10,412 nucleotides of DNA from an uncultured Deinococcales bacterium (lineage in GTDB: Bacteria > Deinococcota > Deinococci > Deinococcales > JAAFIG01): contig CAXTTL010000173.1 of the NCBI GenBank assembly GCA_964247135.1, forward strand, positions 1 to 10,412, read 5' to 3'. The notes beneath the pieces were generated by a model. It saw only the letters and a program-made list of their open reading frames with translations. It was not told the DNA's origin and ran no database searches. The position numbers were made by a program, and so were the translations under genes. Positions 1 to 10,412 of the stretch are shown in pieces (within the stretch, counting starts at the first letter, position 1; every line of letters begins with the position of its first letter).

Positions 1-221
1 AGTTTGTTGTGCCTGCAAACTCTTGGCAGGCGGGTTACATGCTGCCAGGTGGTCGGTACTCGCTCTTTGGTTGCACCATGTCGCCAGGGTTCACCAGCAA
101 CGTTTTTGAGGCTGGGATCGCCGCAGAGTTGATCGCGCAATACCCAACTCGAGCCGCCGATATTTTGCGCCTCAGTGTCAACGGGCATCAAACCCGAATG
201 CCAGAAAACTTTGCGACCTGA
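1..221 (+). CDS. Cupin domain protein, DUF985/cupin_5 family (5'-truncated by window edge)
   Basis: Frame is open from position 3 (FVVPANSWQAG...YSLFGCTMSPGF...FE...ELIAQYP) and resembles the C-terminal half of DUF985 cupins (VPxxxWQ...SLxGCTVxPGF...L...YP). Ends at TGA 219-221. Confidence 0.8.
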   Translation, partial: FVVPANSWQAGYMLPGGRYSLFGCTMSPGFTSNVFEAGIAAELIAQYPTRAADILRLSVNGHQTRMPENFAT

Positions 222-250
222 ACACCTCGAGCCATACGTGGAAAGAAATA

Positions 251-331
251 GGCTCCCTTCCTCCTGATGTTGGGAGAAGCGCCCAAGCCCGCAGGTGCTG
301 CTTTAAGGGCAAGAAGGGTCGGGGATGAGGG
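251..331. repeat. REP-like small dispersed palindromic element (CCCTTC..N..GAAGGG..GGGGATGAGGG type) with an internal 32-nt insertion
   Basis: Sequence is GGCTCCCTTCCTCC-TGATGTT-GGG[AGAAG]-32 nt-[AGAAG]GGTCGGGGATGAGGG. Removing the insert and one AGAAG copy leaves an imperfect hairpin followed by GGGGATGAGGG, a widespread intergenic repeat layout. Only one copy is visible in this window. Confidence 0.5.
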
Positions 332-420
332 TAGACAAGCATTTGCTGCCTTTTTGAAGTCTCGAGACTCAAAATTTGATTTCAGGAATATATCATCGAA
401 GTTGTACTGCACAGCTTCAA

Positions 421-457
421 TCCGTTCAGGTTCGGTTCAGACCCATTTTCGTACTCT
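421..457 (+). promoter_or_regulatory. Putative promoter of the lipoprotein gene: direct repeat with 11-bp period plus -10-like hexamer
   Basis: TCCGTTCAG (421-429) and TCGGTTCAG (432-440) match at 8/9 positions, 11 bp apart. TACTCT (TAnnnT) lies at 452-457. SD AGGAG is at 506-510, before ATG 518. Confidence 0.4.
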
Positions 458-517
458 TATCCCATCAAAAGCCGAACCGCGAGATACGCGCTCAGGGCTT
501 TGAAAAGGAGAACGAAC

Positions 518-1000
518 ATGAAAAACTGGTCTGACAAGTGGATGGGCGCAATAACGGCGGATGCCAAGAAACTCTCGAGCTTGGGGGCTGTGGCGACATT
601 TGTGCTGCTGGCGGGATGCAACCAGAACGTGACGACTGATCCGCCAAAAGGTTTGGCAGTCCCGCAAAACGTGCTGGCGATTGCCGACGATGCGAACGTG
701 ACAGTGGTTTGGGATGCCGTGCTCGATGCCAAAGTGAAAGGCTACAATGTTTACCAAGATGGCGTGAAGGTCAACTCCGACCCGATCTCGAACCTCAGCA
801 CGACCAAAACCCGAGCCGCCAATGCCGCCAAGCGCTTGTCGTTTACGGTCAAAAACGTTGGCGCGGAAAAACTCCATAAGTTTGGTGTGCGTGCCATCGG
901 TGACGACGGCGAAAGTGAAGGCAGCGTCGAACCTGAAACCAAACCACTGGTTTGCACGCGCTACAAAATTTCTGGAACGGACATGGGCGCGTATTATTAG
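518..1000 (+). CDS. N-terminal part: lipoprotein with fibronectin type III domain
   Basis: SD AGGAG 506-510 and ATG 518. Hydrophobic stretch ends in lipobox LAGC (Cys34). FN3 pattern P-N-V-A...VTVVWDAV...GYNVYQDG...FTVKNV...FGVRAI..DGES. Stops at TAG 998-1000. Confidence 0.75.
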   Translation: MKNWSDKWMGAITADAKKLSSLGAVATFVLLAGCNQNVTTDPPKGLAVPQNVLAIADDANVTVVWDAVLDAKVKGYNVYQDGVKVNSDPISNLSTTKTRAANAAKRLSFTVKNVGAEKLHKFGVRAIGDDGESEGSVEPETKPLVCTRYKISGTDMGAYY

Positions 1001-1030
1001 AACATCAGGCTGACCAAAAGCGGCGCGAAC

Positions 1031-3406
1031 TTGACCACCGCCACCGTCAAAGTCAACGCTGCGAACATCGCTTTTAATGGAGGCTCGAGCATTTATCAAG
1101 GTACGTTGGCTGCCGCTGTTCCCGTCGGTGGCAACGTCGAACTTTTGACCGCCGACGGCGACTGCTTGGCGTATGCCCACGATGTCGTGCCAGAAAGCGC
1201 AGTTTTGATTGCTCCAGCCGCAGGTGCAACCGTCAATGCCACCGCCATCACGCCAGTCACTTGGACTTCAACCAGCAATCCAGACCGTTTTGTGGTGTCA
1301 GCCACGTGGTTGATTGACCCAACCAGCGGCACGGGTTGGCGCTCGAGCGACCTGCCAGGCACGGCACGCAGCTTTGATATTCCTGCGGGCACACTGCCTG
1401 TCGGTAAGACCGTGAAAGTGCGCGTTTATGCCTACAATGACGGCGAGGAGACGTTTATTGGCGCTTACGAGGCAGGATCGAAGATGGCGATTCGCAACGC
1501 CGACGAGATCGGACACGACGTCACGACCGTCGAGGTCACGCCAGACCCAGTCGGCACACCTGGCGTCAGTTGGGGCGACCCGCACCTGATTACGCTCGAT
1601 CAACTCGGTTACGAATTCCAACCCGTCGGCGAGTACGACCTGAGCTTCTCGAGCGACAGCCAATTTAGGGTTCAAGCCCGTCATCAACCTTGGGGCGGCA
1701 GCACGGCGGTCAGCGTCAACACCGCCATTGCCACGCAAATGAACGGCAAGAAAGTTGGTTTGTACATCAATCCACCTGCCGGTCAAAGCCCGCTGCGCGT
1801 CGGTGATACTGGTGTTCGCACGGTGGTTCCAGCCACGGGACTCGATCTGGGTGCCGGATATTCAATCACCCTTTCAGGCTCGAGTTACAGCTTCAAATAC
1901 CCCAATGGCGACAAACTGGTTGTTAGCTCTGGAGGTTCGTACTTGAACGCTTTGGTCTACCCAGCCACCACTCGAGTTGGTCAGATGAAGGGTTTGCTTG
2001 GCAACATGGACGGCGACCTTGGCAACGAATTTGTCAAACGCGACAACAGCATTTTGATGCCGCCAACAAACCAGGCTTTGGTGCACGAGTATGCCAATTC
2101 TTGGAGCGTTCCAAGCTTGAGCGACTCGCTGTTTGTTTACGATGCCAACGAACAATTCGGTGGTTTCAACAACCCCGATTTCCCAAGCAGCCAACCTCAA
2201 TCCAGCCCAGAGCAACAAGCCGCCGCCAAACAAACCTGCCTGGACGCGGGCACACTCCCCAAGAACCTCGAGAATTGCATCACCGATGTCACCCAGACCG
2301 GCAACAACGACTTTGGCAAGGGTGCGGCGGGTGTGCAAGAACCCGTCAAGCAAATTCAACCTGATGCGATCAAGAAGCCCGATTTGGTCGTGGTTGATGG
2401 CAGCATCAAATTTGGCGCGTGCCGCCCGTACTCGATCTACGGTTACGGTCAAGTGACCGTCAAAAATATTGGCACCGCCGCCAGCCCAGCCATTTTGGAC
2501 AAAGGTATTGTGCAAGTGGTTCATGCCGATGATGCTGGTCTTGGTGCTGGCTACCGTGGTCAAGGTGTGGGCTTGCAGAGCCTGTCCCCAGGCGAGGTTG
2601 CCACCGTCGATGTCAACGTGGCTTACCCCTTCACCAACCCAGTCGGTGCGGACACCAGCCACGACTACGTCGCCCGAGTGGACTTTGGCAACTGGATCGA
2701 CGAAAGCAATGAAACCAACAACGTCCTTGCCACAAAGCTCCACCTCGAGATTCCAGCGGGCGCTTGCAAAAACCATGTGGCAATCGTGTACAGCAAAGAC
2801 AAGAGTGTTGCCCAAGCTTACGAAATCGGTCTCGAGAAAAAAGGTTTTGACGTGACCCTGCTCGATGCCGCAACGTTAAGTGACACCAACATTGGCGCGG
2901 TTTCCAAATTTGAACTGATCTTGATCGATTCCGAATCTGGTTACTTGAACACCTGGGCTGGCGGCAGCGCCGCAGCCAACGCCGTCCGCCTGTCCAAACG
3001 TCCAGTGCTCGGCATTGGCGAGGGTGGCTACTCGTACCTGGGACTCTTCAAATCACCGCTCGGCTGGGCAAACGGTTGGCACTCTGGCGCTGGTGACATG
3101 AACTACACCAGCATGGGTCATGCCTCACAATCTGGACCATTCGCCGTCAGCGTCGCCGCAGGTTTGGTGGACATCGCAAACCCGCAGATGCCAAACGTCG
3201 CCATCTCCCTGCCACAACCAAGTGCCGCCCTCGAGCTGGTCGGACGGCAAACCGGTGATGCCAGCCATTACATCGCAGCCCTCAACCTCAAACCAACGGC
3301 GGCAACAGGTTGGGCGGAAGGCATCTGGGGCTTTAGTGGCAAACCCTACTACACTGAAAACGGTTGGAACACCCTCTCGAACCTCGGTTGGTACATGATC
3401 AAGTAA
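1031..3406 (+). CDS. C-terminal part: VWD (von Willebrand factor type D) and CARDB domain-containing protein
   Basis: WGDPH at 1571-1585 followed by F-Q-x-x-GEY. GLLGNMDG from 1991. Cys pair in AKQTC...ENCITDV. CARDB-like PDLVV...TVKNIG...LSPGE...IDESNETNN at about 2378-2722. Ends at TAA 3404-3406. Confidence 0.75.
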   Translation: MTTATVKVNAANIAFNGGSSIYQGTLAAAVPVGGNVELLTADGDCLAYAHDVVPESAVLIAPAAGATVNATAITPVTWTSTSNPDRFVVSATWLIDPTSGTGWRSSDLPGTARSFDIPAGTLPVGKTVKVRVYAYNDGEETFIGAYEAGSKMAIRNADEIGHDVTTVEVTPDPVGTPGVSWGDPHLITLDQLGYEFQPVGEYDLSFSSDSQFRVQARHQPWGGSTAVSVNTAIATQMNGKKVGLYINPPAGQSPLRVGDTGVRTVVPATGLDLGAGYSITLSGSSYSFKYPNGDKLVVSSGGSYLNALVYPATTRVGQMKGLLGNMDGDLGNEFVKRDNSILMPPTNQALVHEYANSWSVPSLSDSLFVYDANEQFGGFNNPDFPSSQPQSSPEQQAAAKQTCLDAGTLPKNLENCITDVTQTGNNDFGKGAAGVQEPVKQIQPDAIKKPDLVVVDGSIKFGACRPYSIYGYGQVTVKNIGTAASPAILDKGIVQVVHADDAGLGAGYRGQGVGLQSLSPGEVATVDVNVAYPFTNPVGADTSHDYVARVDFGNWIDESNETNNVLATKLHLEIPAGACKNHVAIVYSKDKSVAQAYEIGLEKKGFDVTLLDAATLSDTNIGAVSKFELILIDSESGYLNTWAGGSAAANAVRLSKRPVLGIGEGGYSYLGLFKSPLGWANGWHSGAGDMNYTSMGHASQSGPFAVSVAAGLVDIANPQMPNVAISLPQPSAALELVGRQTGDASHYIAALNLKPTAATGWAEGIWGFSGKPYYTENGWNTLSNLGWYMIK

Positions 3407-3421
3407 AGCAATAAATCCAGC

Positions 3422-3453
3422 AACTCCCGCCCAAGTTTGGGCGGGAGTTTTTT
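3422..3453 (+). terminator. Rho-independent terminator
   Basis: CTCCCGCCCA (3424-3433), loop AGTT, TGGGCGGGAG (3438-3447), then TTTTTT (3448-3453), starting 16 nt after the TAA. Confidence 0.9.
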
Positions 3454-3513
3454 GTCGCCAAGTCACGCCCAAAATCTCGAGAATCTGTGCCTAAAAACGA
3501 TCAAAAGTTGTCT

Positions 3514-3547
3514 AAATGACGCCGAAATGACGCCTTGGTTATACCCT
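3514..3547 (+). promoter_or_regulatory. Perfect 10-bp direct repeat (AAATGACGCC x2, 11-bp period) followed by -10-like TACCCT
   Basis: AAATGACGCC at 3514-3523 and 3525-3534; TACCCT at 3542-3547. The geometry matches winged-helix (OmpR/SARP-type) activator sites. Confidence 0.5.
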
Positions 3548-3593
3548 AAATTTGCGCTTTGAGTTCAGCAAAGCAGGTCAAAGAAAGGACGAT

Positions 3594-3659
3594 ATGGACA
3601 ATCCCTTTTGTATCCCTCGGATGCAGTATTTGACTCCCACAATCGAGTACCACCCTTAA
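3594..3659 (+). CDS. Candidate small ORF, 21 aa (MDNPFCIPRMQYLTPTIEYHP)
   Basis: Purine-rich SD (AAGAAAGGA, 3581-3589) precedes ATG 3594; TAA at 3657-3659. It lies downstream of the direct-repeat promoter and is below the ORF-track length cut-off. Confidence 0.3.
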   Translation: MDNPFCIPRMQYLTPTIEYHP

Positions 3660-3762
3660 AAACGTTTCGGTTCGGGCAACCACAAAATGCTCAGGCGCAA
3701 CGCTTGCCTCCCCACTCGAGTTGCGTGTTCCAAAACCGTGAAAATTCAGGTCTGAAGTACCG

Positions 3763-3789
3763 AATCCTCGAGCGAAAATCTCGAGGATT
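3763..3789. repeat. Perfect 10-bp inverted repeat built on two CTCGAG sites (possible terminator or operator)
   Basis: AATCCTCGAG-CGAAAAT-CTCGAGGATT, followed by a T-rich stretch. Confidence 0.5.
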
Positions 3790-3911
3790 TTATCTTGAAC
3801 GTGTTGCGCGGACGCTCTTCTCTTGCACAGTTTCAATTCAGCTTCACGACAGCCGCAGTGGTTAATTTGGGGTTCAAGAACACTCAGACCTAGTAGCACT
3901 CGGAGGAAGAC

Positions 3912-4733
3912 ATGGACTACATAAAAACCCAAGACGGTACGAAGCTTTATGTCAAGTTGTGGGGTACGGGTCGCCCAGTCATTTTGATGCACGGCTGGCC
4001 ATTGAGCGCCGACACCTGGGACGACGGCGCGATGGCGCTGGCTGAAGCTGGGTTCCGTGCGATAGCTTACGACCGGCGCGGCTTTGGACGCTCGAGTCAA
4101 CCCTGGAGTGGTTACGAATACGACACCTTGGCAGACGACTTGGCTGCCGTGATTGAGGCGACTGAAGCGAAAGACGCCACGATCATCGGCTTTTCGATGG
4201 GCGGAGGCGAGGTTGCCCGTTACATGTCAAGACACAATGCCAAGAACGTGGTCCAGGCAGGTCTAATCTCGTCGGTGGTACCGTTCATGCTCAAAACCAG
4301 CGACAACCCGAACGGTGTCGATCAAGCCGTGTTCGATCAGATGGCGCAGTCCATGAAACAAGACCGTAGCAAATTCTTTGCAGGCTTTTTTAAGGACTTT
4401 TTCGCCGGCGGTCCAAGCTCGAGCCAAGCCAGCCCAGAATTGCTCGAGTGGGCGCGAAGCCTCGCCATGATGGCTGGTTTGAAAGGCACGCTCGAGTGCG
4501 CCAAAGCCTTTTCGAGCACCGACTTTCGACCCGACCTGGAAGCCTTTCATGTTCCAATATTGATCGTTCACGGAACCGCCGACAAGACCGTACCGATTGA
4601 CACGTCTGGTCGCCAAGCCGCCAAGAAAATCAAGAACGCCAGGTTTCTCGAGTACCAAGATGCGCCGCACGGCTTGTTTGCCACGCACAAAGAAAAGTTG
4701 GTGAAAGATTTGATCGATTTTTTAAAACACTGA
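3912..4733 (+). CDS. cpo: Alpha/beta hydrolase, non-heme chloroperoxidase/perhydrolase (arylesterase-like) family
   Basis: SD GGAGGA 3902-3907. Motifs HGWPL, YDRRGFGRS, nucleophile elbow GFSMGG, HGTAD (acid) and APHGL (His). 273 aa. Confidence 0.9.
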   Translation: MDYIKTQDGTKLYVKLWGTGRPVILMHGWPLSADTWDDGAMALAEAGFRAIAYDRRGFGRSSQPWSGYEYDTLADDLAAVIEATEAKDATIIGFSMGGGEVARYMSRHNAKNVVQAGLISSVVPFMLKTSDNPNGVDQAVFDQMAQSMKQDRSKFFAGFFKDFFAGGPSSSQASPELLEWARSLAMMAGLKGTLECAKAFSSTDFRPDLEAFHVPILIVHGTADKTVPIDTSGRQAAKKIKNARFLEYQDAPHGLFATHKEKLVKDLIDFLKH

Positions 4734-4757
4734 ATTAGACTTGATCCTGAGGTCCTC

Positions 4758-5210
4758 ATGGCAAAATTTATCAAACCCTCCGACACAACTCTACGCTCGA
4801 GACTCACGCCCCAGCAGTATCAAGTCACGCAGCAAAACGGTACAGAACCGCCGTTTGAGAACGCGTATTGGGACAACGATCAACCTGGGATTTACGTCGA
4901 TATCGTTTCCAACGAGCCGCTTTTTAGCACCCTCGACCAATTCGATTCCGATTGCGGCTGGCCCAGTTTCATCAAGCCTCTCGCGCCCGAAAACATTGAC
5001 ACGCGCACCGACCACGCCCACGGGATGCAACGAACCGAGGTGCGATCCATGAATGCCGATTCGCACCTCGGGCATGTCTTTGACGACGGTCCGGCGCCGA
5101 CAGGCTTGCGGTACTGCATGAATTCGGCAGCCATGAGATTCATTCCGCTCGAGGAACTCGAGGAGGAAGGTTTCGGTGAATATTTGGCGTTGTTTGAAGA
5201 GACAGATTGA
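4758..5210 (+). CDS. msrB: Peptide-methionine (R)-S-oxide reductase MsrB (zinc-independent type)
   Basis: [32 protein letters not shown] and RYCMNS (catalytic Cys). The two CxxC zinc motifs are replaced by DIVS and SMNA. GAGG SD at 4749-4752. Confidence 0.97.
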
Positions 5211-5359
5211 TCGATCTGTCTCTCGAGCGATTTCATGATCCGCACTGAGCCGTATCAGGTCTTCGCCATCAAAATATGCAATGACCCTCGAGATTGCGTA
5301 CACGCACCGTTACTCGTGTTGTTCATCACACCCAACCGTGGTCTGATACTCACCGAGAA

Positions 5360-5368
5360 TGGTAAGCT
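5360..5368 (+). promoter_or_regulatory. Extended -10 element (TGgTAAGCT) just upstream of aroK; near-leaderless promoter
   Basis: TG-n-TAAGCT ends 9 nt before ATG 5378, and no SD is visible. Confidence 0.35.
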
Positions 5369-5377
5369 CGAGCCGAT

Positions 5378-5965
5378 ATGCCGCGCACAGGTGAACCCAT
5401 TCTGATCGAACGTCCCGTCTCCTGGGTGGCACTGGTGGGTTTTATGGGCACGGGCAAATCCAGAATTGGCTGGGAACTGTCTCGGGCGTTGGCGCTGCAT
5501 TTTGTCGACACCGACAAGGTGATCGAACGCATCACAGGTTTAACCATTCCACAAATTTTTGAACTTTACGGCGAACCCACCTTCCGCGCCTACGAAACCG
5601 AAATTGTGGACCGCTGCATTGCCCTGGACGAAGCCGTGGTGTCCTGCGGCGGCGGTACTTTCATGAACGACGAAAACCGCCTGAAGTTGCTCGAGCGCGG
5701 TCCGGTGGTCGCGCTGCGAGCCAGCCCAGAAACGATTTTTGAACGCACCAAACGCAGCACCCGCCCACTCTTGCAAGTTCCAGACCCCTTGGGTCGAATC
5801 TATGAATTGCTCGAGATGCGCAAACCGTTTTTTGACGCTGCGCCGATTCAAGTGTCCACCGACGGACGGTATCGCAAAGAGGTTGTGGCGGAAATCATTG
5901 CGCGACTCGAGGCTTGGCAGGATGGTGTCGAATTTGACCCGAGCAGTTTGGGAGAGCACAAATGA
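5378..5965 (+). CDS. aroK: Shikimate kinase
   Basis: P-loop [27 protein letters not shown] and RPLL. Overlaps aroB by ATGA (5962-5965). Confidence 0.96.
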
Positions 5966-7008
5966 GCGAAGTTCAGGTTAAACTCGAGCCGCAATATACT
6001 GTTCGTATCGATCAGAATTTACTCGAGCGCGTGAGGGTTCCCCATGCCAGGGTTGCCGTTATTGCCGATGAAACCGCCGCGAAATACCACCTGACCAAAC
6101 TCGTCACCAGCCTCGAAGCGGGCGGCTCGAGCGTCAAGGTTTTTACCGTACCAAGGGGTGAAGCCTGCAAAAACCTGGATGTTTTCGCCAAACTCCTCTC
6201 GAGCCTCGCGCTAGAAGGTTTGACCCGAGACGCTGCCGTGGTCGCGCTCGGTGGCGGCGCAACCTCGGATTTGGCGGGTTATGTGGCTGCCAGTTACTTG
6301 CGCGGCATTGCGTTTTACGTTTGCCCCACAACCTTGCTGGCAATGGTCGATGCCAGCGTCGGCGGCAAAACCGGCGTCAACCTTCCTGAAGGTAAAAATC
6401 TGGTCGGCGCGTTCCATCAACCCAGTGGTGTTTTCGCCAGCCTCGAGACGCTGCTGACCTTGCCAGACCGAACCTTCCGCGAAGGTGCAGCCGAAGCCTT
6501 CAAACACGGTTTGATTGCCAACCCAAATTTAATGCAACCCATCCTCGAGCCAGATTTTAACGCCGAATCCGAAAAGCTCGAGGCATTCTTGAAAGATGTG
6601 ATTCAAGTCAAAGCCGATGTGGTCGCCATCGACCCCAAAGAAAAACACGAACGCGCCTTTTTGAATTACGGTCATACCCTCGCACACGCGCTCGAGGCGG
6701 TCACAAGCCACAAACTTCCGCACGGCGAGGCGGTCGGTTACGGAATGCACTATGCCGCAATTGTTGGCAGGATTCTGGGCTATGTGGACGTGACCGCGCA
6801 CACCAAAGCCTTCCTCGAGTACCAACAACCCGCCAAACTCCTCAACCTCGAGTTTACGGACGTTGACCCCTTCATGGCTCGAGACAAAAAAGCCGATTCT
6901 GAAGGTGTGCGATTTGTGATGCTGCATGAAATCGCCAAACCGAACCTCGAGCGCGTAAGTCGTAATGTGCTGCTCGAGGCTTGGGCGGAATTCAAAAGAG
7001 CGTTCTGA
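5962..7008 (+). CDS. aroB: 3-dehydroquinate synthase
   Basis: [68 protein letters not shown] and DKK. Translationally coupled to aroK. Confidence 0.97.
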
Positions 7009-7010
7009 TC

Positions 7011-7069
7011 GTAGGGTGCGCCGTGCGCACCGTCGTTAACATGTTCTCGGTGCGCACGGTGCACCCTAC
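7011..7069. repeat. GTAG-family REP doublet in inverted orientation (REPIN-like)
   Basis: GTAGGGTGCGCCGTGCGCACCG (7011-7032) and CGGTGCGCACGGTGCACCCTAC (7048-7069) form a 22-bp inverted repeat with 1 mismatch and a 15-nt spacer. Each arm is GTAG plus an internal hairpin (GGTGCGC-CGT-GCGCACC in the left arm). It lies between convergent genes. Confidence 0.85.
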
Positions 7070-7109
7070 AAAACCCGAGTTCCAGACGAAATTTGCGAAA
7101 TCTCGAGCT

Positions 7110-7676
7110 TCAACGTCCTCGAGAAAAATCTGTATCTGAAGTACACGGAACTCGGGCTGGAAACGAACAATACGCAAAACCTGGTTTTCCAGTAGCGAGA
7201 AAATTTTGCAAAAGCGCAAACGAAAAAATTGAATCCCGCCCGATCACGGCGCTCGAGTGACACTGTTTGCAATCGGTCACATCCATATTCGCTTCAACGC
7301 TGCCGTCAGGATTGAACGCGGCGAACGCCCAAGCATCGTTTTTGCTCGAGTTTTGTTTGACCATGACATGCACGTTCTGTTGACCCAAACGACCAAGACT
7401 CGAGCCGTAAAAGGCTTGAATCACCAGCATTGAACCCACGGGAAGCGGCTTGCCATCTCGAGTCGCGTCAATCACATTTTGCGAGGCAAATTCGTCACGG
7501 ATCAAACCGTCTGGGCGTTCCACGGTGGCATATTTGATCAGTTGGATTTGAAAGTTTTTGGGAAACGCAATTTCGTTCACCACGGCTTTTTGCTGCGGCT
7601 CGAGCCAGTACGCGACCAAAGCCAGCGCAATTGCGCCCAGAAAGAAAATGGTTGGAGTCAATTTGGGTTTCAACAT
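7110..7676 (-). CDS. Exported mono-heme c-type cytochrome, cytochrome P460/c'-beta family
   Basis: N-terminal hydrophobic signal or anchor. Family-like motifs PLPVGSMLV, VMVK, WAFAAF..DG, a C-terminal CKQCH (7257-7271) and D-x-IFS. ATG 7674-7676 to TGA 7110-7112. Confidence 0.8.
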   Translation of the reverse strand: MLKPKLTPTIFFLGAIALALVAYWLEPQQKAVVNEIAFPKNFQIQLIKYATVERPDGLIRDEFASQNVIDATRDGKPLPVGSMLVIQAFYGSSLGRLGQQNVHVMVKQNSSKNDAWAFAAFNPDGSVEANMDVTDCKQCHSSAVIGRDSIFSFALLQNFLATGKPGFAYCSFPARVPCTSDTDFSRGR

Positions 7677-7743
7677 TTTTGTTACGCAAGATTCGCCGCA
7701 AACGTTCAGTCCCCCAAGTTTAACCGAATAGAATGCGATCAGA

Positions 7744-8535
7744 ATGTCATTGGCTCAACTTACATTTTTAGGCTCGAGTGATTCTCAAGGTGTGCCGCGT
7801 TGGTGGTGCAATTGCGAGGTTTGCTCGGAGGCTCGAGTCACCAAAATCAACGCCCGAACCCGCCCGAGTGTGCTGCTCGAGCTTGAGGGTGTGAACGTTT
7901 TGATTGATGTCAGCCCAGAATTTCGGATTCAAGCCACCCGAGAGAATTTACGGAACCTCGAGACGGTGCTGATTACCCATGCGCACAACGACCATATTTT
8001 GGGTTTGGGTGATGTGCTCGATTACCTGCGTCATGAAGGTGCGAACACCCAGATTTACGCACCCGAAAGTGTACTGCCGCAACTCGAGCAACGTTTTGCA
8101 TACGCTTTTAAGGGGAAATACGCCTCGAGGTTTCATGCCTTTCCCGAAGTCCTCGAACTTTATGGTTGGAAAATCACCGCGTTTGAAGTTCCGCACGGTT
8201 TTAACGGTACGGCAAATGCCTTTAAACTCGAGCGTCACGGCAAAACTTGGGTGTATTGCTCCGATTCGATTGGACTCAGTGATGAGCTTCTCGAGCAGCA
8301 TTTTCAAAACCTCGAGCTGCTGATTTTGGGCACGAGTTTCTGGGATGAATCCAGCGCCGATTACGCGGGTCGTAGCGTTTACGATGTGCTCGAGGCGCTC
8401 GAGGTGGTGGAAAAGATCAAACCTGTCAAAACAGTCTTCACTCACCTTGGACACGGGGTGGACGCTCGAGATGCAGATAAACTCCCAGCAAACGTTTCAA
8501 TCGCGCAGGACGGCTTAAAACTCGAGTTGTGGTGA
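7744..8535 (+). CDS. MBL-fold metallo-hydrolase, PhnP-like phosphodiesterase subfamily
   Basis: LGSSDSQGVP..CNCEVC (structural Zn Cys cluster), LIDVSP, THAHNDH (HxHxDH), VPHG, YCSD and FTHLGH. A -10-like TAGAAT at 7729-7734 lies close to the ATG. Confidence 0.9.
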   Translation: MSLAQLTFLGSSDSQGVPRWWCNCEVCSEARVTKINARTRPSVLLELEGVNVLIDVSPEFRIQATRENLRNLETVLITHAHNDHILGLGDVLDYLRHEGANTQIYAPESVLPQLEQRFAYAFKGKYASRFHAFPEVLELYGWKITAFEVPHGFNGTANAFKLERHGKTWVYCSDSIGLSDELLEQHFQNLELLILGTSFWDESSADYAGRSVYDVLEALEVVEKIKPVKTVFTHLGHGVDARDADKLPANVSIAQDGLKLELW

Positions 8536-8536
8536 A

Positions 8537-8932
8537 TCACTCGAGGTCGCGCGGTCCAAAACCCGCTGGTAACAATTCAGAAACACTAAAAACCCGAGTT
8601 TCGTTCTTGTCGTTGACCATGACCACCTCAGCGTTTTCGCCAAACTCGAACATGATTTGTCGGCACGCGCCGCAGGGCGAACTTGGCGGGCTGGCGAGGG
8701 TGTAAACCACGGCTTTGCTAAACCCCCGAGTGCCTTCGGAAACCATCTTTTGAATGGCGGTTTGCTCCGCGCACCTCGAGAGTCCGTAACTGGCATTTTC
8801 GACGTTGCAACCGGCGTAAATTTTGCCGTCAACGCCCAGCAGCGCCGCGCCGACGTGAAATCTCGAGTACGGGGCGTAAGCGCGGTCAAAGGCGGTTTTG
8901 GCGGCTGCCAGCAATTCTGGGTCGATGTTCAT
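8537..8932 (-). CDS. cdd: Cytidine deaminase (homotetrameric type)
   Basis: AYAPYSRFHVGAAL, GCNVENASYG, CAE and PCGACRQ (three Cys zinc ligands), ELLP..F. Confidence 0.97.
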   Translation of the reverse strand: MNIDPELLAAAKTAFDRAYAPYSRFHVGAALLGVDGKIYAGCNVENASYGLSRCAEQTAIQKMVSEGTRGFSKAVVYTLASPPSSPCGACRQIMFEFGENAEVVMVNDKNETRVFSVSELLPAGFGPRDLE

Positions 8933-8937
8933 GGCTC

Positions 8938-8943
8938 AGTTTA
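8938..8943 (-). promoter_or_regulatory. -10 hexamer TAAACT 5 nt upstream of the cdd ATG (putative leaderless promoter)
   Basis: Minus strand reads TAAACT-GAGCC-ATG with no SD. This is the usual geometry of leaderless transcripts, which are common in Deinococcota. Confidence 0.45.
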
Positions 8944-8961
8944 CCCATAAATGTCAAGCTT

Positions 8962-10323
8962 TTAGGTTGCGCCCTCACTGGCGGCTTGATTGTTCTTATC
9001 GGTTTCGGGCGGTTGGTTTTCGTCTTGTTTTTTGGTCACGCGAACCTTCAAAATACGGCGTTCATCGGCTTCTTCGATCTGAAAGACCCAACCTTCAAAC
9101 TCGGTCTCCTCGCCCTGCTGCGGAATATAACCAAATTGATGGTAGATAAAGCCAGAGAGCGTGTCGAATTCACCCTCGAGTTCCTCGCCAACGTCGATGC
9201 CCAGCGCGTGTTCGACCTGATCGATTTTCATGCTGGCTTCAAGCACCATCACGCCGTCCTCGAGTTGTTCGATCTGACTGACCTCGGGTTCGTCGCTTTC
9301 ATCGTAAATCTCGCCGACCAGCTCCTCGAGTAAATCCTCTAAAGTCACCACGCCTGCCGTGCCGTCGAATTCGTCGACCACGATTGCCATGTGCATTTTT
9401 TTCTCTTTGAGTTTGCGCAGCAATTCTGGCACGCGCATGGTTTCTGGAGCAAAATAGGTTTCGTGAACGATGTCGCGCACCTTCACGTGCTCGAGTTCAT
9501 TTAAATGCTTTAAAACCTCGGAGATTTTCACCACGCCAATAATGTGGTCGGTGGTGTCCTCATACACGGGCAACCTCGAGTAATTGTGCTCCCAATCCAG
9601 CTCGAGCAATTCTTTTAGTGTGGCGTCGGCTTCTATCGCAATCATTTTTGGGCGCGGCGTCATGACGCGGCGCAGGGTCGTGTCGGTCAGGTCAAAGACC
9701 TTGTAAACCAATTCTTTCTCGTCATTCTCGAGCACGCCCTGTTCGCTCGAGGCGTTCACGATCATGCGAATCTCTTCTTCGGAGTGCGCGGTGTGATGAC
9801 CCGACACGGCTTTGACGCCGAACAAACCAATGATCCCGCCACCGATCCACGCCAACATCCTCGAGAGTGGACCGAAGACCCAGGCGAAGCCCATCAGTGG
9901 AATAATCAAGAACATTGCCAGGGTTTCGGCGCGTTGAATGGCGAGCGATTTGGGCACGAGTTCGGCAAAAATCACGGCGATAAAGCTCGAGATCAGCAAA
10001 CTGATGATCGTGGCGATGGTTTTGATCGAACCCTCAGCCACGCCAAAACTGAGGAGCGGTCCTTCAAACAGGCGTCCAAGGGCTGGTTCGGCAACAATAC
10101 CCGTCGCGATGCTGGCGACCGTGATGCCCAGTTGGGTGGCGGCAATGTAAAAACCAATGTTTTCGACCGCTTTTTGCACCAATTTGGCTCGGGCATTGCC
10201 CTCATCGACCAGTTGATCGATACGGGTTTTGCGAATGGAAACCAGAGAGTACTCGGCTGCGACAAAAAAAGCGTTCAGCAGAATTAGCAAAATCAATAAA
10301 CTTAAACCGACGGCATCCGACAT
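8962..10323 (-). CDS. Hemolysin-family / CNNM-CorC membrane protein (DUF21 TM domain + 2 CBS + CorC_HlyC domain)
   Basis: NAFFVAAEYSLVSIR, TQLGIT, ELVPKSLA, SEEEIR, VMTPR, YSRLPVY, AIVVDEFDGTAGVVTLEDLLEELVGEIYDE and DTLSGF...IP. GAGGAG SD on the minus strand at 10333-10338. Confidence 0.95.
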   Translation of the reverse strand: MSDAVGLSLLILLILLNAFFVAAEYSLVSIRKTRIDQLVDEGNARAKLVQKAVENIGFYIAATQLGITVASIATGIVAEPALGRLFEGPLLSFGVAEGSIKTIATIISLLISSFIAVIFAELVPKSLAIQRAETLAMFLIIPLMGFAWVFGPLSRMLAWIGGGIIGLFGVKAVSGHHTAHSEEEIRMIVNASSEQGVLENDEKELVYKVFDLTDTTLRRVMTPRPKMIAIEADATLKELLELDWEHNYSRLPVYEDTTDHIIGVVKISEVLKHLNELEHVKVRDIVHETYFAPETMRVPELLRKLKEKKMHMAIVVDEFDGTAGVVTLEDLLEELVGEIYDESDEPEVSQIEQLEDGVMVLEASMKIDQVEHALGIDVGEELEGEFDTLSGFIYHQFGYIPQQGEETEFEGWVFQIEEADERRILKVRVTKKQDENQPPETDKNNQAASEGAT

Positions 10324-10412
10324 CTTTGGCGTCTCCTCAAAACGCCTGCGTTCCTCGAGCGAAACTCCTCGAGAACGCGTTTTGCTTCAGCCCAAATGCA
10401 GGCTGAGCAAAC

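Follow-up and report, generated by a model that had tools for sequence, protein, structure and literature searches.

We analyzed the distribution of the hexamer CTCGAG in a 10,412-nt stretch of DNA from an uncultured Deinococcales bacterium. This stretch, further called the window, is one whole contig (G000:C173) of the genome under study, G000. We detected exactly 79 copies of CTCGAG in it (7.6 per kb), located within 148..10373; the series opens at 148 and closes with the copy at 10368-10373. When the window was shuffled 200 times with its dinucleotides preserved, the mean was 2.25 copies and the maximum was 7, and none of the shuffles reached 79. An earlier reading of the window, made from the letters only, had counted about 79 copies against about 3 expected, and the exact values agree with it.

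The window contains nine genes supported by Pfam matches, which carry 65 of the copies. One copy falls in an unassigned open reading frame (ORF) region and 13 are located in spacers. The genes of the forward strand are a VWD/CARDB-domain gene (1031..3406; nine sites, 4, 1 and 4 of them in frames 0, 1 and 2), an alpha/beta-hydrolase gene (3912..4733; five sites), msrB (SelR, 4758..5210; three sites, including the close pair 5148 and 5157), the shikimate kinase gene aroK (5378..5965; three sites, every one read as CTC GAG), the 3-dehydroquinate synthase gene aroB (5962..7008; 13 sites, 12.4 per kb) and a metallo-beta-lactamase-fold gene (7744..8535; 13 sites, 16.4 per kb). The reverse strand encodes cytochrome P460 (7110..7676; six sites), cytidine deaminase (cdd, 8537..8932; three sites) and a CNNM/CBS/CorC transporter (8962..10323; ten sites).

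The spacer copies start at 148, 226 and 361 (148..366), that at 226 lying at the margin of a dispersed repeat; at 3476, 3715, 3767 and 3780 (3476..3785); at 5222, 5287 and 5367, between msrB and aroK (5222..5372); at 7102, between aroB and the P460 gene (7102..7107); and at 10354 and 10368 (10354..10373). Eleven of them had been listed as intergenic by the sequence-only reading, and all eleven indeed lie outside the Pfam-supported ORFs; sites 148 and 7102 do likewise, which gives the 13. The same reading had claimed several reading frames, and we found all three inside the ORFs of the window. There were 39 copies read as CTC GAG, eight as nCT CGA Gnn and 20 as nnC TCG AGn, with site 1084 entered twice, as two ORFs overlap there.

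Further, we quantitated CTCGAG in the whole assembly of G000 (386 contigs, GC 52.7%, 84% complete). There were 33,925 copies in 5,091,702 bases, that is 6.66 per kb or one per 150 bases; the runner-up palindromic hexamer had 3,272 copies. The quotient of observed and expected copies (O/E) was 24.75, 35.2 and 14.4 under Markov models of order 0, 1 and 2, respectively. Models of order 3 and 4 gave 3.45 and 1.24. These two expectations are circular and were rejected: CTCGAG accounts for 62% of the TCGA and 88% of the CTCGA in G000, so that the sub-words are nearly confined to it. All 297 contigs of at least 5 kb carried 2.6-10.5 copies per kb. Only one of 2,341 two-kb windows was empty, and O/E was 18-26 in each GC bin.

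We did not observe any conserved extension of the word. At flank positions -12 to +12 no base exceeded a frequency of 0.39, which was reached by the top preference, G at -1, and GCTCGAGC made up only 12.5% of the copies in G000. Therefore the hexamer itself is the unit and not a repeat element. A dispersed repeat, either of the repetitive extragenic palindromic (REP) type or a miniature inverted-repeat transposable element (MITE), was ruled out as the source of the copies, as no sequence was conserved beyond the core word.

We compared the genic counts with five synonymous shuffles of 3,143 long ORFs of G000, which kept each protein and the codon usage of each gene. There were 25,270 copies in the genes, while the shuffles contained 3,308-3,480. 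The excess was present in each frame: for CTC GAG, 15,486 copies where the shuffles had about 2,655, 3,873 against about 249 (15-fold) for nCT CGA Gnn and 5,911 against about 493 (12-fold) for nnC TCG AGn. Non-coding DNA, defined as lying outside ORFs of at least 80 codons, carried 7.55 copies per kb (O/E 40.6). As the sequence-only reading had argued, Leu-Glu usage alone is insufficient to explain these numbers. G000 encodes 20,039 Leu-Glu pairs, 77% of them spelled CTCGAG, while outside CTCGAG it favours GAA over GAG (40,271 vs 19,450) and both CTG and TTG over CTC. The share of CGA among Arg codons was 83% in the nCT_G context and 17% overall, and the share of TCG among Ser codons was 88% in the nnC_AGn context and 24% overall.

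The order-wide counts were obtained from a sample of 201 Deinococcales genomes, with genome sizes rounded in the density figures. The family of the source genome (family f1) is represented there by 19 genomes of five genera. All 19 genomes, in all five genera, had 4.3-6.8 copies of CTCGAG per kb, and no sampled genome outside this family exceeded about 3.4 per kb. In the sister family, the Deinococcus-like Deinococcaceae (family f3; 53 genomes, 51 in one genus), we counted 26-1,193 copies per genome, which is far under the expectation from base composition. Individual Deinococcus loci had 0-2 copies against 3.7-7.1 expected. Despite this depletion, an XhoI-family endonuclease (PF04555) was found in none of the 53 genomes. 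The named relatives of the aroB gene of the window are metagenome-assembled genomes called 'Deinococcales bacterium'. Only two freshwater metagenome runs held 5-7% of the sampled words, in short contigs of low depth; these contigs showed at least four window sites unchanged, and we gave them little weight. The excess is therefore not confined to the window or to its assembly.

We assessed the conservation of the copies in two alignments. In the first one, a 65-kb contig of the same-genus genome G045 was compared with G000 and G085 (46,723 columns, 84-85% pairwise identity). There, 269 of 372 CTCGAG copies (72.3%) were intact in all three genomes, compared with 28.1% of all hexamers, and CTCGAG ranked first for conservation among 403 words with at least 25 copies. 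The second alignment covered 344 kb of G000 and G045 at 86% identity. The copies were identical in 83.0%, 71.3% and 80.9% of cases in frames 0, 1 and 2, respectively, and in 71.1% of cases in non-coding DNA (n = 38), against a background of 41-46%. Where both genomes encoded Leu-Glu, CTCGAG was unchanged in 95.3% of 1,118 cases, while other CTC-NNN pairs and other NNN-GAG pairs were unchanged in 43.5% and 55.6%. The one-letter variants CTTGAG and CTGGAG were unusually unstable (about 10% unchanged each). Changes at positions 1 to 6 of the word numbered 22, 14, 20, 20, 18 and 22, inner letters being lost less than outer ones, and T2-to-C changes were observed 8 times with about 31 expected. Loss was about 3-fold slower than the background, which shows directly that some process keeps the site.

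The same comparison showed that copies are created as well. We polarised the changes with G085 as outgroup, pooled the two ingroup branches (G000 and G045) and applied a neutral model. Ancestral copies were kept in 538 of 612 cases, against 388 expected. Gains from words one, two and three letters off numbered 7, 5 and 2, with 2.08, 0.60 and 0.08 expected, in total 14 against 2.8, which is 5-fold over the neutral model. As controls, the remaining 179 arrangements of the same letters gave ratios of 1.10, 0.77 and 1.10 for one, two and three letters off, so the model fits them. In the three-way alignment, single lineages gained 52 copies and lost 74, so the word is roughly at steady state. From synonymous contrasts we obtained a scaled advantage S of 3.0-4.8 over one-letter variants. 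By standard fixation formulas, S of about 3 would predict loss at 0.16 times and gain at about 3.2 times the neutral rate; the observed loss hazard was about 0.28 times neutral and one-letter-off gains were 3.4 times neutral. Divergence of the flanks was 8.9% at gained sites, 9.2% at lost sites and 7.3% overall. We rejected import tracts around the gained sites, as this rise was only slight.

The word also leaves a mark on proteins. Leu-Glu was the most over-represented dipeptide in G000 (O/E 2.36). The word occupies 4% of the genome and would account for about 11,500 extra Leu-Glu pairs in the proteome. We compared the products of aroK and aroB with the majority residue of 10 Deinococcus and Trueperaceae orthologs. 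At 13 of the 16 CTCGAG sites of these two genes the outgroup majority has other residues, and at 3 of 16 it shares them. It differs at two of the three sites of aroK, and in aroB only two of 13 sites (6691 and 6878) lie on residues matching it. Typically Leu was retained and the following residue was turned to Glu. In these genes the sites thus arose mostly by amino-acid changes.

These data bear on the possibility that no special process is needed, and that the copies are a by-product of Leu-Glu or codon usage, of dispersed repeats, or of assembly and binning. Such an explanation draws on the 61% of genic copies in the CTC GAG frame, on codon usage alone taking high-GC genomes of other phyla to 4-9-fold, and on the 1.24-fold excess under the order-4 model. 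That model is circular here, the shuffles yield about 3,400 genic copies in place of 25,270, the two frames that do not spell Leu-Glu stand at 15- and 12-fold, and non-coding DNA at 40.6-fold. The flanks are nearly random with GCTCGAGC in 12.5% of copies, the excess recurs in 19 of 19 genomes of the family, and at least four window sites were read unchanged in contigs of two other metagenome runs. The by-product explanation is refuted by the family spread, the synonymous shuffles, the conservation with Leu-Glu fixed and the circularity check, and we give it practically no credence. The excess is a genuine and strong trait of the whole family, best classed with the highly iterated palindromes (HIPs). 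CTCGAG is almost certainly a palindrome of this kind: a DNA-level word that genes carry in every frame and spacers carry too throughout the family, with a directional force that preserves and creates copies. The comparison with the cyanobacterial palindrome HIP1 made by the sequence-only reading is thus supported by the excess, the frame independence, the conservation beyond controls and the clade-wide spread. An O/E of at least 15 was taken as the mark of an extreme excess.

We analyzed the spacing of the copies in G000. The pair correlation was 0.35 at distances of 6-17 bp and 0.79-0.91 at 18-65 bp, and then flat at about 1.03-1.07. No periodicity was found up to 1.2 kb. No pair stood at distance 6; such a pair would contain GAGCTC, of which G000 has 0 copies. 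The ratio of variance to mean of the counts was 1.4, with gaps of 300-1,000 bp in deficit and gaps of 60-200 bp in excess. The density hardly varied around the beginnings and ends of genes; just after stop codons it rose modestly, to 11.7 per kb. The longest gaps free of CTCGAG were mostly found within low-GC islands. Mobile genes carried the word as well. The full CTCGAG load (O/E 21-39) was present in nine of ten loci bearing methyltransferase genes, the exception being a MvaI/BcnI pair with GC of 0.39 and O/E of 4.8.

Two similar spacer hairpins made of CTCGAG pairs were observed in the window, at 3766-3786 and 10353-10373 (CCTCGAGCGAAAATCTCGAGG and CCTCGAGCGAAACTCCTCGAG). The stem of the former is formed by sites 3767 and 3780 (CCTCGAG, 7 nt, CTCGAGG) and is followed by ATTTTAT. 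This hairpin may be a terminator, because a T-rich run stands directly after it. The second hairpin contains sites 10354 and 10368. We rejected hairpin-forming close pairs as a general feature, as all distances below 21 bp are depleted.

Two dispersed elements were also noted in the window. The repeat at 221-354 is about 115-135 nt long and gave more than 100 matches of 73-97% identity in five genomes of the same genus. No Rfam family reached its gathering score in the window, this repeat included. The repeat may represent a MITE or the gene of a small RNA. Between aroB and the P460 gene, at 7011-7075, lies a REP-like inverted doublet (GTAGGGTGCGC...GCACCCTAC) that is dispersed in related genomes too.

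Viral contigs with three close copies of CTCGAG were inspected as well. The 25 densest of at least 80 such loci had GC of 0.62-0.74, and most of them carried GAGCTC and GGCC. None of these 25 was of the type seen in the source family, so they are uninformative on its phages. The 6-kb IMG/VR viral contig L219 (GC 0.63) had 7.9 copies of CTCGAG per kb (O/E 23.5) together with 26 copies of GAGCTC. It is unlike the signature of the source family and may be a repeat-rich or Leu-Glu-rich region.

The sequence-only reading had suggested an orphan methyltransferase of CTCGAG or TCGA, and we looked for such an enzyme. Sequence does not reveal the specificity of a methyltransferase, and most assemblies are incomplete. 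Six methyltransferases of G000 each have a partner restriction enzyme from another Pfam family (NgoPII, Eco29kI, PvuII, MvaI/BcnI, NotI-like and SacI-like). Both C5 enzymes of G000 are among them, in the NgoPII and Eco29kI pairs, and the PvuII-paired enzyme matched PDB 1boo at 1.5e-149. The specificities attached to the names of the paired enzymes, which we take to be GGCC, CCGCGG, CAGCTG, CCWGG/CCSGG and GAGCTC, fit the near-absence of those words in G000. Four further proteins of methyltransferase type have no restriction partner: a 798-aa HsdM-like protein, a 466-aa SPPY protein and two MmeI-like proteins, the last two standing outside the cross-genome search.

Several palindromes were purged from G000 (5.09 Mb). 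We counted 0 copies of GAGCTC, 1 of GGGCCC, 3 of CGGCCG, 4 of AGGCCT, 5 of CGTACG, 7 of GGATCC, 11 of CCGCGG and 15 of CAGCTG, and the tetramers GGCC and CTAG had O/E of 0.02 and 0.07. This purge is matched by at least six restriction-modification (R-M) gene pairs (loci L081, L082, L083, L086, L087 and L200).

No family-wide CTCGAG methyltransferase was found among PF01555, PF00145, PF02086, PF02384, PF07669, PF12950 and PF05063 in the checks of the source family. We set aside the HsdM-like protein, which had a close match only in G090 (74%), and the alpha-class SPPY protein, which was present in 5 of 18 genomes and is intact in G000, with in-frame stop codons in G045 and G010 (L173 and L174). 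The PvuII and SacI-like pairs were set aside as the agent, as were the NotI-like pair (partner in 5 of 19 genomes), TaqI_C (1 of 5) and MT-A70 (PF05063; 1 of 19). C5 methyltransferases were present in 5 of 5 genomes but were non-orthologous, the best match of the enzyme of G030 being 35%. The D12 class was present in 18 of 19 genomes but was split into a group linked to SacI and a CbeI-like group (2.4e-94 to PDB 7m6b) that G000 lacks. PF01555 gave no match in the closed genome G030. An XhoI-family endonuclease (PF04555) was found in 0 of 19 genomes of the family. Such enzymes occur together with a PF01555 methyltransferase in 5 of 23 genomes of another family of the order (family f4), and this methyltransferase, used as a query, had no close relative in the source family (at most 28% identity).

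Two of the loci are described here in their own right. The SPPY protein (L085, G000:C4:28580-29977) is an alpha-class amino-methyltransferase with motif I FCGTGST and motif IV SPPY, and its gene adjoins that of prolyl-tRNA synthetase. Beside the nucleoside-hydrolase gene an R-M swap was observed: G000 (L086, G000:C14) has an NgoPII-family enzyme with a C5 methyltransferase, and the same chromosomal spot holds a D12-fold methyltransferase very similar to M.CbeI (PDB 7m6b) and an unannotated ORF of 376-397 aa in G045:C6 (L201) and G085:C78 (L205).

Repair enzymes gave a similar picture. We found no Vsr in G000 (84% complete), and neither MutH (2 of 19 genomes) nor NucS (12 of 19) is family-wide. 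The competence channel ComEC (PF03772) was detected in 18 of 19 genomes. The deamination products of CTCGAG were not depleted in G000, with 2,188 copies of TTCGAG and 1,442 of CTTGAG against about 1,230 expected. As there was no family-wide candidate among those checked, the reader of CTCGAG was not identified. The suggested orphan enzyme did not emerge, the methyltransferases checked being either sporadic or paired with other restriction enzymes, and the link to a methyltransferase that is typical of HIP1 does not appear to be supported for CTCGAG.

We tentatively favour the explanation that CTCGAG is a self-DNA tag spread by a drive linked to uptake or recombination, to which we assign a probability of roughly one in three. 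A dimeric factor reading CTCGAG would mark DNA as the clade's own in natural transformation or in the subsequent recombination, acting either at uptake itself or at the survival of incoming DNA. Fragments bearing the word would be fixed more often, and therefore a molecular drive, like those put forward for uptake sequences and now for HIP1, would fill the genome to saturation; a second copy near an existing one would contribute little. The repulsion between copies and the flat density across genes and GC bins point towards such a tag over a purely local repair bias, and so does the presence of the same word in all five genera, with only 26-1,193 copies per genome in the sister family. The full load of the mobile R-M genes (9 of 10 loci) fits an exchange mainly within the clade. 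A competence channel, ComEC, is also at hand in 18 of 19 genomes of the family. HIP1 raises the efficiency of transformation and correlates with uptake machinery, according to the available text of PMC13756078 and bioRxiv 10.1101/2024.09.10.611283. The tag is slightly favoured over local repair bias because of the short-range saturation, the full load on mobile genes and this precedent.

Several points weigh against a tag of this kind. No receptor or reader for CTCGAG was found among the hand-picked families, and ComEC, being common in bacteria and in Deinococcales, has no discriminating value. Known uptake sequences have 9-12 nt, are not palindromic and occur at about 1 per kb, while CTCGAG has 6 nt, is palindromic and reaches 6.7 per kb. 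DNA uptake in Thermus and Deinococcus is not known to be sequence-specific. The flanks of the gained sites were barely more diverged than the rest (8.9% vs 7.3%) and gave no sign of imported tracts. Biased repair, or selection for any DNA-level function, predicts the conservation and the directed gains equally well. The short-range repulsion could come in part from the protein cost of nearby Leu-Glu pairs.

Three other mechanisms have to be weighed against the tag. Following Elhai's proposal for HIP1, a methyltransferase acting on CTCGAG or its TCGA core could be coupled to methyl-directed mismatch repair or very-short-patch repair, which would restore the methylated word. We consider this unlikely. 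HIP1 and the alternate HIPs of cyanobacteria co-occur with cognate methyltransferases (available text of PMC4390886), m5C methylation of CTCGAG is known in Halorubrum (PMC8112702), and CTCGAG and TCGA are methylation motifs in hot-spring metagenomes (bioRxiv 10.64898/2026.06.24.734251). The lower loss of inner letters, including the 8 T2-to-C changes in place of about 31, resembles the end deviation of HIP1. Also, specificity is unreadable from sequence and G000 is 84% complete, which leaves room for such an enzyme. The searches argue the other way. None of the methyltransferases checked is family-wide and the six paired ones of G000 serve other restriction enzymes; the HsdM-like, SPPY, NotI-like, TaqI_C and MT-A70 proteins are sporadic, the C5 enzymes non-orthologous and the D12 class split. 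The XhoI-linked methyltransferase of family f4 shares at most 28% identity with any protein of the source family, and G030 is without PF01555. Vsr was not found in G000 and MutH is present in 2 of 19 genomes, while TTCGAG and CTTGAG are not depleted. Biased gene conversion independent of methylation would need only a mismatch enzyme that resolves heteroduplexes towards CTCGAG with no benefit to the cell, perhaps assisted by multiple chromosome copies and frequent recombination. A single S of about 3, predicting 0.16 and 3.2, comes near the observed rates of loss (0.28 times) and of one-letter-off gain (3.4 times), the word, like a selfish drive, prevails over codon preference and over the protein sequence, and the flanks of the gains resemble ordinary substitution in place. 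We nevertheless hold this mechanism to be rather improbable. No enzyme was identified, with NucS in only 12 of 19 genomes of the family; a purely local bias does not predict repulsion up to about 65 bp; and the gains from two or three letters off (7 vs 0.68) need neutral intermediates, unless partial matches are favoured.

The third mechanism, which we regard as a long shot, is an architectural or protective site maintained by ordinary selection, such as the binding site of a dimeric nucleoid protein of high abundance or a Chi-like nuclease stop needed once per 100-200 bp. The even coverage would suit it, with 1 of 2,341 two-kb windows empty, a variance-to-mean ratio of 1.4 and too few gaps of 300-1,000 bp. 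So would the repulsion of close copies, and a palindrome would probably suit a homodimer. No candidate protein was found, however, the pair correlation has no period up to 1.2 kb, and S of about 3 at every one of 34,000 sites would, by argument, amount to a large cumulative load.

We compared the preferred tag and the word itself with known systems. CTCGAG resembles the cyanobacterial HIP1 (GCGATCGC) and alternate HIPs, as far as these are described in the available text of PMC4390886 and PMC5861425: they are short GC-rich palindromes in tens-fold excess, found clade-wide in all frames and in spacers, and their outer letters tolerate one-letter deviation more. In contrast to HIP1, CTCGAG is found in Deinococcota, has six letters instead of eight and visibly rewrites proteins. 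It reaches 6,660 copies per Mb, compared with 300-2,700 per Mb given for HIP1 in the same text (PMC4390886). We found no conserved cognate methyltransferase for it in the source family among the Pfam families checked. In cyanobacteria the association is not strictly defining, as some HIP1-rich strains are described as lacking such an enzyme (available text of PMC4390886). A periodicity on the kb to tens-of-kb scale is reported for HIP1. In G000, which is in 386 contigs, the distances covered for CTCGAG reached 1.2 kb, with no period seen. XhoI-type R-M systems read the same word. Their targets are usually purged, as GAGCTC (0 copies) and GGCC (O/E 0.02) are in G000, whereas CTCGAG is 25-fold enriched and the XhoI-family enzyme is present in 0 of 19 genomes of the family.

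The uptake sequences of Neisseria (DUS, DNA uptake sequence) and Pasteurellaceae (USS, uptake signal sequence) are clade-specific, are built by point substitution at tolerant genic positions, are more evenly spaced than chance and are scarce in recently acquired DNA. CTCGAG is like them in being clade-specific, accumulated by point substitution, genic at tolerant positions, evenly spaced and scarce in recently acquired DNA, with a competence channel present. It differs in form, being a 6-nt palindrome at 6.66 per kb and not an asymmetric core of 9-12 nt at about 1 per kb. Very-short-patch repair by Dcm and Vsr at CCWGG of E. coli needs a C5 methyltransferase and Vsr, and its effect is a fraction of a fold. 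It is similar in that a repair favouring a short palindrome shifts genome-wide counts, but the excess of CTCGAG is 25-fold. For CTCGAG, the searches yielded neither Vsr in G000 nor a cognate C5 enzyme, and its T-variants show no depletion. Chi sites are asymmetric, orientation-biased, few-fold enriched and spaced about one per 5 kb. Like the proposed role of CTCGAG, they are over-represented words that mark self and are read by a DNA-processing machine; no such reader was found for CTCGAG among the families checked.

We found no report of hyper-abundance of CTCGAG or of any iterated palindrome in Deinococcota in the literature, subscription journals and supplements being outside the scope of this search. 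Three decades on, HIP1 still lacks a function on which there is agreement, and comparative work on it was limited to one phylum and to one word family tied to two methyltransferases. CTCGAG is an independent case, with another word in another phylum, 2.5-20 times the density, S of about 3-5, a visible protein cost and no obvious methyltransferase partner. It lets general traits (conservation, directed gains, saturation) be told from incidental ones, such as the methylation of GATC or CGATCG.

In summary, the excess of CTCGAG, its frame independence, conservation and directed gains, the rewriting of proteins, the family-wide spread and the short-range repulsion were all observed, while the action of the force through uptake or recombination and a protein that reads the word are inferred. 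It is possible, although on balance doubtful, that this is a genome-writing drive independent of any recognisable methyltransferase, in which the machinery reading CTCGAG converts near-cognate words while the sister Deinococcaceae purge the same word. If so, CTCGAG would be the first palindrome of the HIP class to be found beyond the cyanobacteria, and would offer a second, independent approach to the problem of HIP1, now 30 years old. Deinococcus, which removes CTCGAG, offers a natural comparison for phylogenetic profiling towards the reader. The signature may also be of practical use in binning, in spotting foreign DNA and in assigning mobile elements to this uncultured family. If the drive is real, the opposite CTCGAG signatures of this family and the Deinococcaceae could bar the exchange of DNA between them.

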